NCBI GenBank assembly: GCA_038143065.1
Contig: JAYQLI010000035.1
Span: 224,001-288,000 of the forward strand
From: Rhodospirillales bacterium
Lineage (GTDB): Bacteria; Pseudomonadota; Alphaproteobacteria; Bin95
Reading direction: 5' to 3'
Length of the DNA stretch: 64,000 nucleotides
Shown piece by piece: positions 3,224 to 39,397 of this stretch. The position numbers were made by a program, and so were the translations under genes. A model generated the notes under the pieces. It saw only the letters and a list, made by a program, of their open reading frames with translations, was not told the origin of the DNA and ran no database searches. The number at the start of each line of letters is the position of its first letter. The first letter of the stretch is position 1.

Positions 3224-4103
3224 CTAAACTGGCCGTGTTCCTTTTACCACCGTTCGGTGCAGAATACGCGGATGAAGGCTCATATCATAATTCCTGTCGG
3301 CTCTATGCAGCAGGACACGATTATCCCAAAGGGTTAGATCACCTTTCTTCCATCGATGGCGGTATACAAAACGATCTGCCGTAGCTCTTGTCAGTAGTTT
3401 ATCAAGCCAAATTCGACCTTTTTCGTGATTTTGATTCTTAATGTGGCTTATGTGGGTTCCCAACACAACGACTTCTTCCCATTCTCGTGCGTGCGAACGA
3501 GAGGATGGGACACTGGGGGTCGTTCCTTTTTCTGTTCCTCAGTGGCTGGTCGATTGCCAGTGTTGCGTCGGCTGGCCTCCCATGAATGTATGGCGTGCAT
3601 GCTAGAAGCCTGATCTTTTTCGGAGGATGACAGCGATTCATACGCCAATAGCATATTGGCGAAGAGGGTATCTCCACCGTCGGGAGGAAGTTGTATTGCG
3701 TGGAGCATTGTAAGTAATGACGGAATGGCATGATAAGATTTATCGGTATGCCAAAAATAATTGCCATCACTAGCTGGTTTTAACGTAGGTTTCCCAGTGA
3801 CCTCATCAAGATTTGTAACCGTGTGTACCAAAGGGTAGCGTTCGCCGGATTTTAGCTCACCAACATGCCCTTCAATCTCACCAAAATTAAGGGTGAAATT
3901 GTATTGAGCTTCCTTAGTCAGGTCTTGGTTTCGAAAACATAGGACATGAAATTCTTCCATTGCATGCAGGATACCAGCTCTTAGCTCTGGTGATAGAGCC
4001 TTTGAAAGGTCAAGTCCTTCAATTTCTGCACCTGCAACATTAGACAGTCGAGTGATTTTGAATGGGATGTAACAGATGATAGGTTCAAGTTTTCTTCATT
4101 CAT
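3224..4103 (-). CDS. TauD/TfdA family Fe(II)/2-oxoglutarate dioxygenase (split by indels)
   Basis: N-terminal LSNVAGAEIEGLDLS read manually upstream of 3960; WHTDKSY, GGDTLFAN, HPLVRTH, WDNRVLLH..R motifs. Confidence 0.85.
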
Positions 4104-35787: not shown

Positions 35788-37056
35788 ATGACATTAGCAT
35801 CAGTTTCAGAGTTCGATGCTGACTCTCCTAAATTTTTGCGTGGCAAATATGCCATATGTGGGATTGGTGAAACTACTTACCGTCGTGGATCAGAGGAATC
35901 GACACGCAGTCTTGCAACCTGGGCCATAAAAAATGCCATGGATGATGCCGGGATTGGGCCGTCTGATATCGATGGCATGCTTTCTTATTCAGGAAATGAC
36001 TCTGTGCATGCTCCTTGGGTCGCAGGAGATCTCGGAATACGTCTAAATTTCTACATGGATGTTCATGGGGGAGGCTCATCCACTGAGGCTCTCATTGGAA
36101 TTGCCATAGGTGTGATTGAAGCTGGCATGTGCAAGACCGTTGCAATTTACAGGGCTATGAATGGTTATAGTCAGGTGCGTATCGGGGGAACTGGAGCCCG
36201 TTCTGCGGTTCCAATAGTTGGTGACCAAATTCATAATAGGGCTTATGGCTGGCAATCAGCGGGGCAGATGTTTGCCCCTACTTTTCTGCGCCACATGTAT
36301 GATTACGGAACTACTCCGGAGCAAGTTGCAGCTGTAAAAGTAGCTCATTCAAAACACGCGTCTAACAATCCCAAAGCCTACTATAAAAATAGGGTGACGA
36401 TTGAAGACGTAGTTAACTCGCGCATTATTTGTAAGCCCCTGCATTTGCTCGATTGCTGTGTCGAAACAGATAACGCAACCTGTATTATTGTAACCAGAAT
36501 TGATCGTGCTAGAGACTGTAAAAATCCTCCGGCTGTAATTCAATCAGTTGTCGGTCGATGCTGCAAACCCAGAATTGATATGCACTATCAACATGGACCA
36601 ATCTCAACCGTTGCTGGTCATTATGCAAAGAACATTCTCTGGCCCAATGCAGGGTTAGGCCCAGAGGATGTCGATGTTACAGGCTCTTATGACGCCTTTA
36701 CTTTCACTACCATGCTGCAACTTGAGGATTACGGTTTTTGTAAAAAGGGCGAAGGTGGTGATTATGTCTCCTCGGGAGCCATCGAGCTTGGAGGGATGCG
36801 CCCTAACAATACGTCAGGTGGGCATCTATGTGAGGGCTACACCCACGGTATGAACATGGTGATCGAAAATACCCGACAACTTCGAGGGGAAGTAGATGAC
36901 AGCTGTCCGGTTGGTCCAGATGGTAAGCGCCAACATACCCACGATTACAGCGAGGGAGGCTGTCGTCAGGTCAAGGATGTAGAGGTGACGGCTAATCTCG
37001 GGTGGGCAATGCCCGGAACTGGTTCTGCCATGGTTATGGCTAAAGACTCGCGCTGA
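35788..37056 (+). CDS. Thiolase-superfamily (SCPx/Ltp2-like) protein lacking the nucleophilic Cys; probable CoA-ester aldolase
   Basis: GIGET, GGGSS at the usual CxS position, LLDCC, YDAFT, NTSGGHL.EGY.HG. Confidence 0.8.
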   Translation: MTLASVSEFDADSPKFLRGKYAICGIGETTYRRGSEESTRSLATWAIKNAMDDAGIGPSDIDGMLSYSGNDSVHAPWVAGDLGIRLNFYMDVHGGGSSTEALIGIAIGVIEAGMCKTVAIYRAMNGYSQVRIGGTGARSAVPIVGDQIHNRAYGWQSAGQMFAPTFLRHMYDYGTTPEQVAAVKVAHSKHASNNPKAYYKNRVTIEDVVNSRIICKPLHLLDCCVETDNATCIIVTRIDRARDCKNPPAVIQSVVGRCCKPRIDMHYQHGPISTVAGHYAKNILWPNAGLGPEDVDVTGSYDAFTFTTMLQLEDYGFCKKGEGGDYVSSGAIELGGMRPNNTSGGHLCEGYTHGMNMVIENTRQLRGEVDDSCPVGPDGKRQHTHDYSEGGCRQVKDVEVTANLGWAMPGTGSAMVMAKDSR

Positions 37057-37069
37057 AGGGAAAATAGAT

Positions 37070-37591
37070 ATGCCAATCGTTGGTGAATATATGGGTATGG
37101 CTCTTACTATTGATGATCAAGATAAGGAAAATCACGAATTCTTTAGCTGGTGCGCGGCAGGTGAATTCCGGCTGCAAAGGGGTAAGCAGTCAGGATTGTT
37201 ACGCTATCCACCAACCACAGCATGTCCTTGGACGACTGATCGAGATTATGATTGGGTGCCGGTTGAAGGGAAAGGAACTGTACATTCATATGTTGAAGTT
37301 CATCATCCCATTCAACCAGCCTTCCAAGACAAGGTTCCCTATATGATTTTGTTAGTTGACCTTGATACCCAGAAGGGGGAACCATCCGAGCATGAAGCTA
37401 TCCGGGTTGCTGGAAACCTGGTTTCTCCAGACGGTGAATTTGCAGCGTCTGAAATTATAAGATCTGTCGGGATTGGTACCCGGGTCAGAATGGTTTTTAA
37501 GGAAGTCACTGAAGGATTTTCGCTTCCCCATTGGACGATCGACCTCGATGCAAATCAGCCAGATAGCCCCTGGCGTTACCCTCAGGAGTAA
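37070..37591 (+). CDS. DUF35 (ChsH2-like) OB-fold protein with degenerate zinc ribbon
   Basis: LQR....G..RYPP...CP, GKGTVHSY, PY..LVDL, IGTRVRMVF. Confidence 0.82.
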   Translation: MPIVGEYMGMALTIDDQDKENHEFFSWCAAGEFRLQRGKQSGLLRYPPTTACPWTTDRDYDWVPVEGKGTVHSYVEVHHPIQPAFQDKVPYMILLVDLDTQKGEPSEHEAIRVAGNLVSPDGEFAASEIIRSVGIGTRVRMVFKEVTEGFSLPHWTIDLDANQPDSPWRYPQE

Positions 37592-37594
37592 TAC

Positions 37595-38229
37595 ATGTCC
37601 GGAGATCCAGTTTACCAGCGCCAAAATTTCGGTAATTCCGTTGGTTTTGGTTCGCGGCCAGCGCTGTTGTTAGTGGATTTTCAGGTTGGTTTTGTCGATC
37701 CAGATGTGTTTGGAGGGGGGAACATTAAACAGGCAGTATCAAATACACAAAGTTTATTGGCTGGAATGAGGGATATTGGGGCACCCATTGCCTACACAAG
37801 AGCTGTCTTTGATAAAGCTCTGCAGATGGTGGTACCTTCGCCATGAAAGTGCCTGGACTTTATGAACTTGAGGATACTGCTTCGATAAGCCAGATAACAC
37901 CAGAGTTAGCCCCCCATCGAGGGGAATTAGTGCTGAAAAAGATAGGCCCCTCAGCTTTCTTCTCGACCCCTTTAATGAGTTGGCTTGTCAAGCATTCTGT
38001 AGATACTTTGATAATAACAGGGGCAACTACTTCAGGCTGTGTGCGAGCGAGTGTTGTTGATAGTTGCTCATATGCTTTACGCACTATTGTTGCCACTGAC
38101 TGTTGTGGCGATCGGGCGATCGAACCGCACGAGGCAAATCTTTTTGACATGGGGCAAAAATATGCTGATTTAATGACGGGTGACGAAGCGCTTTCTATGG
38201 CGAGAGCTGCATTTGCCACTAATCATTGA
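37595..38229 (+). CDS. Isochorismatase-family amidohydrolase (NicF/N-carbamoylsarcosine amidase-like; indel near 37820)
   Basis: GFGSRPALLLVDF, K..PSAFF, GATTSGCVRASVVD, DR...HEANLFD...KYAD. Confidence 0.85.
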
Positions 38230-38232
38230 GAG

Positions 38233-39312
38233 TCACTCAAGCTTATAGGTATTTATTCCCAATTCTTCTCGAAAACCTGCGCTAATTTCTGCCTTTTGGT
38301 CTTCAAGAGGAATTCCTGTTGCATCTGCAATTTTTACGACGGCCTGAAATATCGCAATTACTGCGGATGCATCCACCATAGCTGCATGGCCTAGGGTATC
38401 TGCGACTGTTTGCCTTCGTAGGGCTAGGTCAGGGGGTTCAGCCACGGCAGCATCGGCGTAGGCGAGCAAAATTTGCCCGAAAGGCACACCACTTTGAGTG
38501 TCCTTATCAATGACTGCAGCGTCTGCAAAAACCTTTCCAGCATGGAGGCCACTCCCACGGAGCAGAACAATATGGCTGGTTGTTCAGTATAAACATCGAT
38601 TGAGTGCAGAAACTCGTGCAGCAAGAAGTTCTATCTGAGAGTGAGAAATTGCCCTGGTTTCTAAGTCAAAGCGGCGGAGTAGTGCATCTGGTAAATACAT
38701 GGCATCGTCTAGATCAAAGAAGCCAGAAACGCTTGCTGGAACTAAGCTTAAAGCTTGATGAATATGAGCGCCGCCTCTTCCTTTATACATTTCGAATGCA
38801 GCTGCCGGATCGTTTTTACCTAGTTCGTGTGGTTTTACCGTTGGTACCCATGCATCAGATACATATGCAGAGGGCACTGTTTCTTGTAATGGTCGTCCAG
38901 GCTTTGGAGTGGGTAGCTCACGCAGTACTATGCCCATAGCAGTATGAAATCGATCAACAGCAATAGTTTCAGCAATAACACCGACGGTTTCAACGTATTG
39001 CTCTACTGTGAGGATGCTTGGCACGATACTATGGAACCATCGCTTGGTGAGACGATCGGCATCTGTGGTAATGCGATGGATAGTGTCAACCCAGCCGGAC
39101 TTAAGAGGTGATGCGCTAGAATGCGGGCCGACTTCAGTTTCAGGCGATAGAGCATTTTTTCTTTCCGCGCAGGCCGAGCAATGCCTGGCAGACCTAGTTT
39201 CACTTGCTATATAAACTCGCTCTTCGGCAGTGAGCCAAGTGCCTGCACGGCCCAGGCGATCCCAAGCGCGATCATGAGCCTCAGTTAAATCCTGGCGAAT
39301 TTCAGGTTCCAC
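38233..39312 (-). CDS. AhpD/alkylhydroperoxidase-related selenoprotein candidate, 359 aa with UGA at codon 243
   Basis: ORFs 38584-39312 and 38233-38487 share one frame separated only by TGA (38584-38586); readthrough gives QIELLAARVSALNRCLY-U-TTSH; SECIS-like hairpin follows. Confidence 0.8.
38537..38579 (-). promoter_or_regulatory. Bacterial SECIS-like stem-loop
   Basis: CCAGCCAU...CUGCUCC-GUG-GGAGUGG...AUGCUGG; apical loop starts 25 nt after the UGA with G first. Confidence 0.65.
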
Positions 39313-39397
39313 TTCTAGTCTCCTTAATCAGCTTGATGATAAGCTAATGCATTATCATTTAACTTTGCAATTTAGCTGCAGTTAAGTTTGGTTTCTT

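Follow-up and report, generated by a model that had tools for sequence, protein, structure and literature searches.

The analysed window is a stretch of 64,000 nucleotides from a Rhodospirillales bacterium (contig JAYQLI010000035.1, positions 224,001 to 288,000), and on its minus strand two open reading frames (ORFs) of 242 and 84 amino acids lie in one frame around an in-frame UGA codon. We conclude that these ORFs together form a single gene, which encodes a cytoplasmic selenoprotein of 359 residues from the family NF041238, and that its UGA would be decoded by SelB and a selenocysteine insertion sequence (SECIS) to give an oxidoreductase with the active pair Cys240-Sec243 (Sec, selenocysteine). 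Our probability for this reading as a whole is about 0.93. The gene is a genuine selenoprotein gene, while the protein family has already been described and curated and the kind is not new. What is added here is the build of the protein from two AhpD-like halves, the lack of a Cys form in the collections searched, the lack of a conserved neighbouring gene, and the truncation of the protein at the UGA in public protein sets.

Reading frame, family membership and conservation of the UGA

The ORF list of the minus strand holds 38584..39312 (242 aa, GTG start) and 38233..38487 (84 aa) as separate entries. When TGA was read as U in translation, the positions from 39312 to 38233 gave one frame of 360 codons, terminal stop included, and its sole internal stop is the TGA of codon 243 (window 38586-38584). 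The residues around this codon are ...QIELLAARVSALNRCLYUTTSHIVLLRGSG... A preliminary description of this DNA had taken the two ORFs for one frame with a single TGA, and the translation agrees with it. Generally, TGA is an ordinary stop in the window, where it ends 8 of the 37 ORFs of at least 250 aa, and a recoded genome was therefore rejected as the cause of the in-frame TGA.

The equivalog model NF041238.1 of NCBIfam (AhpD_rel_CFYUT) matched the read-through protein with 417.7 bits (cut-off 175), and residues 5-357 were aligned with positions 1-356 of the 357 in the profile. In the search of the genome the same model scored 408.9 bits and the match was marked '1 TGA'. This profile spans both ORFs, which bears out the earlier suggestion that gene callers had cut a single gene in two. 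The Pfam domain PF02627 (CMD) is marginal on residues 219-258 (23.7 bits, cut-off 23), and TIGR00778 scored 22.9 against a cut-off of 27.8. Judged by these profile scores, the read-through protein belongs to NF041238 and is related to AhpD sensu stricto and to TIGR01926 without being a member of either. It shares with NF041238 the full-length equivalog match, the profile length of 357 positions, the C-x-Y-U-T motif with the UGA and the CxxU class. Nothing substantial sets it apart from the family, x being Leu here (C-L-Y-U-T) and Phe in the family name.

The preliminary description had allowed that the family might already be named, and this proved right. In the part of a 2026 review that deals with such families, NF041238 is listed as a CxxU selenoprotein and equated with 'hypothetical protein 1' of the 2005 Sargasso Sea selenoproteome (PMC13188914). 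The corresponding passages of the 2005 paper give 'hypothetical protein 1' as a family of four sequences that conserve a CXXU motif and have a predicted SECIS, with table figures that may include Cys homologs, and they report AhpD-like CxxU selenoproteins as well (PMC1088965). A 2008 count in the Global Ocean Sampling (GOS) data comprises 299 AhpD-like 1 and 70 AhpD-like 2 selenoproteins (PMC2398784), and BSepDB is said in its own description to hold an AhpD-like family page (PMC13326102). AhpD-like 1 (COG2128, CxxU) and AhpD-like 2 (pfam02627, CxxU), as defined in PMC2398784 and placed under TIGR01926 in the relevant part of PMC13188914, resemble the window protein in the CMD/AhpD fold, in a CxxU with Sec as the second residue, and in their marine and estuarine occurrence. 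However, that part of the review keeps them as families separate from NF041238, and the window protein has an extra N-terminal domain of about 165 residues and stays under the TIGR01926 cut-off.

The codon was checked in 127 loci, of which 47 came from genome searches and 80 were the best of the relatives found by a contig scan; the two collections overlap, and 118 of the 127 loci are distinct over 600 nt. The contig scan was made with the family alignment and confirmed at least 547 relatives among at least 600 stretches. TGA occupies the U column in all 127 homologous loci (47 of 47 from the genome searches; 80 of 80 among the best from the contig scan), and the homologs do not end at C-L-Y. 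The position of U243 is thus Sec throughout the family loci, and it corresponds to the second Cys in the AhpD relay. The preceding x of C-x-Y-U-T is more variable: among 76 loci counted within the best 80, it is V in 39, Y in 13, L in 10, T in 5 and F in 5.

In the window genome and 40 relatives, NF041238 matched in 23 of the 41 genomes; among the matches listed in this search, 32 of 33 contain exactly one TGA and one partial match contains a TAA. A class-wide sample of 401 genomes gave a match in 21, with exactly one TGA in each of 34 matches, and a phylum-level sample gave a match in 0 of 400 other genomes. The family records are chiefly metagenome-assembled genomes of Alphaproteobacteria (Rhodospirillaceae, Reyranella, Defluviicoccus and others), together with some labelled Beta- or Gammaproteobacteria and two labelled Myxococcota. 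A Cys form of NF041238 was not found in the 41-genome and 401-genome searches, in the contig scan, or among the best 120 of 446 database homologs (matches to the read-through protein in a collection of 5.8 billion proteins).

Copy number differs between genomes. Many relatives (G097, G266, G391 and others) contain two or three paralogous NF041238 copies, each with its own TGA. The window genome contains one copy, and also a weak stop-free AhpD-like match (C35:186945-187274, 25.4 bits).

The downstream hairpin and the selenocysteine machinery

A stem-loop just 3' of the UGA, with a G-starting loop 25 nt after it, had been described before, and it was located at the place given in Table 1: its loop is GUG, and the first G of this loop is separated from the UGA by 25 nt. 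In an alignment of 46 DNA sequences downstream of the UGA (A1), the hairpin reads as a nearly invariant CUGCUCC-GUG-NGAGCGG, with the core GCUC/GAGC and the loop G-U conserved. RNAalifold predicted six pairs on A1 (columns 31-36 with 42-47), of which three are invariant and two show double changes; changes from G-C to G-U also occur, the window included. For a structure of 13 pairs, 76.6% of the cells are paired, against 30-54% with slid partners, and none of 500 shuffles equals it. Across the 118 distinct sequences the six-pair stem keeps 6 pairs in 101, 5 in 15 and 4 in 2, and the loop is CGUGN in 111.

Since the stem overlaps conserved codons, third-position variability was measured on the whole-gene codon alignment. 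The entropy minimum of the gene, in windows of six codons, falls on codons 250-255 (0.35 bits, where the mean over the gene is 1.56). Codons 250, 251, 252, 245 and 254 vary least among the 62 conserved four-fold columns. By these alignment statistics, RNA-level constraint sits where a bacterial SECIS is expected.

A longer stem around the upper hairpin is possible. Its five pairs (A1 columns 17-21 with 55-59) all vary on both sides and 66.2% of the cells are paired in 45 distinct sequences; in the window it folds with -14.5 kcal/mol (z -0.91), and RNAalifold did not predict it on A1. In L058 and L059, the two most divergent members of the family, the design of the hairpin is kept and one base pair is altered (UUCCUCC-GUG-AGAGUGG). 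The Sec-UGA and the stop-UGA of the window gene lie 116 codons apart in one mRNA, and the hairpin is the only mark that distinguishes them.

The genes needed for selenocysteine insertion, selA, selB, selC and selD, were to be looked for according to the preliminary description, and all four are present in the window genome (G000; 52 contigs, 97.6% complete, 5.53% contamination), selA with a blemish that is weighed below. The genome search gave 496.2 bits for selA, 435.3 bits for selB, which adjoins selA, and 280.4 bits for selD, all above their cut-offs. The tRNA-Sec gene (selC) scored 71.5 bits against a gathering score of 47, and ARAGORN called it tRNA-SeC with the anticodon tca.

The selD ORF is 508 aa long (L010, 1393-2919, minus strand; the same place as G000:C35 around 517788-518672), and its SelD site reads C-G-G-C. 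Before the SelD part, some 170 residues resemble what we take to be the C-terminal half of a pyridine-nucleotide-disulfide oxidoreductase. Another indel may have truncated this N-terminal part. Fusions of Ndh and SelD with a CxxC motif are mentioned in the relevant passage of the GOS paper (PMC2398784).

Two AhpD-like halves and the active site

The protein was modelled by AlphaFold2 on an alignment of 43 sequences, which also served for the count of invariant residues. As a single chain the model is all-helical, with a mean pLDDT (predicted local distance difference test) of 95.4 and a pTM (predicted template modelling score) of 0.94. The best PDB matches of the whole chain in Foldseek are 2prr, 6k40, 2oyo and 3c1l, which have the AhpD core or are peroxidase-related (TM on the target 0.72-0.74). 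The C-terminal half is also recognized by profile, with PDB 6k40 AhpD at 2.5e-15 on residues 169-332.

The N-terminal half is more diverged. Modelled alone, its 165 residues reach a pLDDT of 92.3, and the best PDB folds are again 6k40 and 2prr (probability 0.98-0.99, TM on the query 0.52-0.53). When the two halves were compared by hhalign, they aligned over 103 columns (E 0.0005, probability 31.6%) and C45-x-x-C48 fell on C240-x-x-U243. A profile search of PDB sequences with this half gave weak matches alone (6k40, E 0.21), and for this reason the domain is assigned by its predicted fold and by hhalign. Taken together, the predicted structures and the profile comparison support two helical AhpD-like domains in the protein, with a separate CxxC in the N-terminal one. 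The two-domain arrangement suggested in the preliminary description thus finds agreement among AlphaFold2, Foldseek and hhalign.

In the active-site segment E228, C240, Y242, C/U243, T244 and H247 are invariant in 43 of 43 sequences. The UGA therefore falls at the second Cys of an AhpD-type motif, as had been proposed from the sequence. C45, C48, H64 and H79 of the N-terminal half are present in at least 90% of the 43 sequences. The exceptions include L058 and L059 (G309 and G157), with 29-31% identity, which are without the N-terminal CxxC and the conserved His and keep Sec in C-F-Y-U-T.

The same relay is known from enzymes with Cys. In the part of PMC3141380 that deals with the active site, the relay of Mycobacterium tuberculosis AhpD is Glu118, Cys130, His132, Cys133 and His137, and that of Pseudomonas aeruginosa PA0269 is Glu36, Cys48, Tyr50, Cys51 and His55. 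The window protein resembles these two (1knc/1gu9 and 2o4d) in the all-helical fold and in Glu-x11-Cys-x-His/Tyr-Cys-x3-His with equal spacing, but it has Sec for the second Cys, is double in size, and is accompanied by neither ahpC nor another conserved neighbour. In fold only, it is also similar to Sestrin2 (5dj4, 5cuf, 5t0n), a single chain with two AhpD-like helical halves (whole-chain Foldseek probability 0.89-0.97, TM on the query 0.45-0.47). Sestrin2 differs by a root-mean-square deviation of 13-16 Å and an identity of 11-12%, it is eukaryotic and it is no selenoprotein; the resemblance is architectural, with homology not established.

By analogy with the bacterial Sec pathway, SelA and SelD would make the Sec-tRNA(Sec) that SelB carries. 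SelB would bind the hairpin CUGCUCC-GUG-GGAGUGG so that selenocysteine is inserted at UGA-243, and the terminal UGA, which has no such hairpin, would stop translation. By homology with AhpD, Sec243 and Cys240 may form a selenenylsulfide/selenol-thiol redox couple that a Glu228-Tyr242-His247 proton relay serves, and the enzyme may act as a thiol/selenol oxidoreductase in the reduction of peroxides or disulfides.

A wider interpretation can be put forward, which we consider unlikely on present data: the family would be an obligate selenoenzyme with a sestrin-like double AhpD fold, in which C45 and C48 form an internal electron relay to Cys240-Sec243. Three observations allow it: no Cys form occurs in the 127 loci or in the best 120 database homologs, the N-terminal CxxC aligns with the CxxU between the halves, and no partner gene is conserved. 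If it holds, the enzyme would be a stand-alone reductase with chemistry that requires selenium, and not a peroxiredoxin adaptor like AhpD. Any relay through C45 and C48 would not be essential, because L058 and L059 keep Sec without the N-terminal CxxC.

The best 120 of the 446 database homologs all end at the UGA, and most of them are unnamed or called 'hypothetical protein'. Where genome annotation does not apply the NF041238 rule, the catalytic third of the enzyme is missed. With no Cys forms found and a duplicated AhpD architecture, the family is a sensible choice for initial biochemical work.

Points against, alternative explanations and gene neighbourhood

Several observations weigh against the selenoprotein reading or parts of it. 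Sec at UGA-243 is a prediction from nucleotide sequence. The hairpin overlaps conserved coding sequence (L-L-R-x-S-G), its stability compared with shuffles is unexceptional (z-scores of -1.58, -0.91 and +0.66 for segments of 21, 47 and 91 nt, respectively), and the stem is mostly invariant, with three of six consensus pairs that never vary, so that the covariation is thin. A search of 38450-38650 against Rfam with E up to 10 gave no SECIS family, the only hit being a chance match to the lncRNA HOTTIP_2 of 5.4 bits. As no shuffle z-score is significant alone, the case for a SECIS rests on comparative data. With regard to an AhpD-type activity, TIGR00777 (AhpD proper) scored 18.5 against a cut-off of 191.95 and TIGR01926 (peroxidase-related enzyme) 37.3 against 81.8; because these scores fall below the cut-offs, we can only infer the biochemical activity. 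Finally, selA (G000:C35:594751-596061) has a TAA inside the family match, while the selA matches in relatives are stop-free in 18 of 18, and about 29 of its codons are out of frame compared with three relatives (L002 about 3390-3620, minus strand). The residual doubt about a decoded selenoprotein comes from this anomaly and from support that stops at the level of nucleic acid and sequence.

If the selA defect is true, this strain may be less able to make Sec. The gene would then be intact and UGA-243 undecoded, with a 242-residue product or a low level of near-cognate read-through, in other words a recently disabled selenoprotein. We give this a slim chance. The selA protein on both flanks of the odd stretch is identical to that of the closest relative, another frame restores the expected residues, and the frame is regained afterwards, which is the pattern of paired assembly indels. 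Moreover, an isochorismatase gene at 37595-38229, directly beside the selenoprotein gene, is split in the same assembly. For these two reasons the selA anomaly was read as assembly noise, probably two compensating indels. In addition, selB, selD and tRNA-Sec are intact, the selenoprotein gene is without decay, and its hairpin pairs in 7 of 7 positions.

Slimmer still is the chance that there are two separate genes, or a pseudogene with a nonsense mutation, in which a 242-aa protein ends with C-L-Y and an unrelated 84-aa ORF follows. Gene callers do give two genes, and the same best 120 database homologs are all 232-269 aa long, align with 61-67% of the query and for the most part bear the name 'hypothetical protein'. 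However, the curated profile and the AlphaFold2 model cross the UGA as one unit, and the stop interrupts the invariant C-x-Y-U-T-x-x-H motif, where a helix begins. The 84-aa ORF begins 32 codons past the UGA, and the intervening residues are conserved. A pseudogene would not keep TGA in all of the homologous loci, with records from Alpha-, Beta- and Gammaproteobacteria and Myxococcota.

The accuracy of the codon itself was compared with public data. All or part of the stretch is contained in 20 public runs from 14 studies, which are estuary, marine and seawater metagenomes, 6 of them recorded as RNA. Four of these runs, each from a different study (two DNA libraries and two metatranscriptomes), supplied contigs for a comparison at the gene: positions 38584-38586 are identical in 4 of 4, and the whole gene is free of indels. 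A 1171-nt contig from an RNA library runs through the entire gene, UGA included, although such contigs are no proof of transcription. Window position 38436, the first base of codon 293 on the coding strand, is G here and T in the contigs of all four runs; either the strains differ at this position or the window assembly has a wrong base. That TGA stands for TGC, TGT or TGG through a sequencing or assembly error is a negligible prospect, in spite of the indel-type defects nearby and in selA and of the deviating base 38436, because the contigs of four independent runs keep TGA without any indel and all 127 homologous loci have it. The preliminary description had likewise held that the stop is not of the indel type seen elsewhere in the window.

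The features of the selenoprotein gene are summarized in Table 1.

Table 1. Features of the NF041238 gene in the 64,000-nucleotide window
Feature	Position	Strand	Details and basis
Shine-Dalgarno-like AAGGAG	39320..39325	-	7 nt upstream of GTG; read from sequence
Selenoprotein coding sequence	38236..39312	-	359 codons, GTG start 39312-39310, Sec codon 243
N-terminal diverged second AhpD-like domain, residues 1-165	38818..39312	-	predicted fold, hhalign
N-terminal C45-S-A-C48 motif	39169..39180	-	nearly invariant in family
C-terminal AhpD-like (peroxidase-related) domain, residues about 166-359	38236..38817	-	profile and Foldseek
Active-site segment E228-x11-C240-L-Y242-U243-T-T-S-H247 (putative proton-relay and redox motif)	38572..38631	-	invariance, Pfam CMD
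In-frame UGA, codon 243, read as selenocysteine in C-L-Y-U-T	38584..38586	-	TGA column conservation and 4 public runs
Possible extended SECIS stem, CCAGC 38579-38575 with GCUGG 38541-38537, around the upper hairpin	38537..38579	-	weakly supported
SECIS-like upper hairpin CUGCUCC-GUG-GGAGUGG	38565-38549	-	first stem base 19 nt after UGA
Terminal stop TGA	38235-38233	-	ends selenoprotein frame

To describe the neighbourhood, ORFs of at least 90 aa were clustered in flanks of up to 3 kb at 80 loci. No flanking cluster occurs in more than 8 of the 80 loci, and a cluster of 15 loci overlaps the gene itself; an operon partner was therefore rejected. Linkage to ahpC or a peroxiredoxin partner was not found in the 80 loci or among the window neighbours, which are a convergent isochorismatase-like gene downstream and a divergent EamA-type transporter gene upstream. 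A promoter scan gave 0 sites, and two terminator-like sites were found, no more than in shuffles.

The split isochorismatase gene (plus strand) consists of two overlapping ORFs, 37595-37846 (83 aa, PF00857 2-52) and 37843-38229 (128 aa, PF00857 74-174), and the change of frame near 37843 is probably an assembly indel. Ahead of it, the plus strand holds at 35788-37591 a thiolase-like gene (PF22691) and, next to it downstream, a ChsH2-type OB-fold gene (PF01796); such a pair is characteristic of sterol or side-chain aldolase/thiolase systems.

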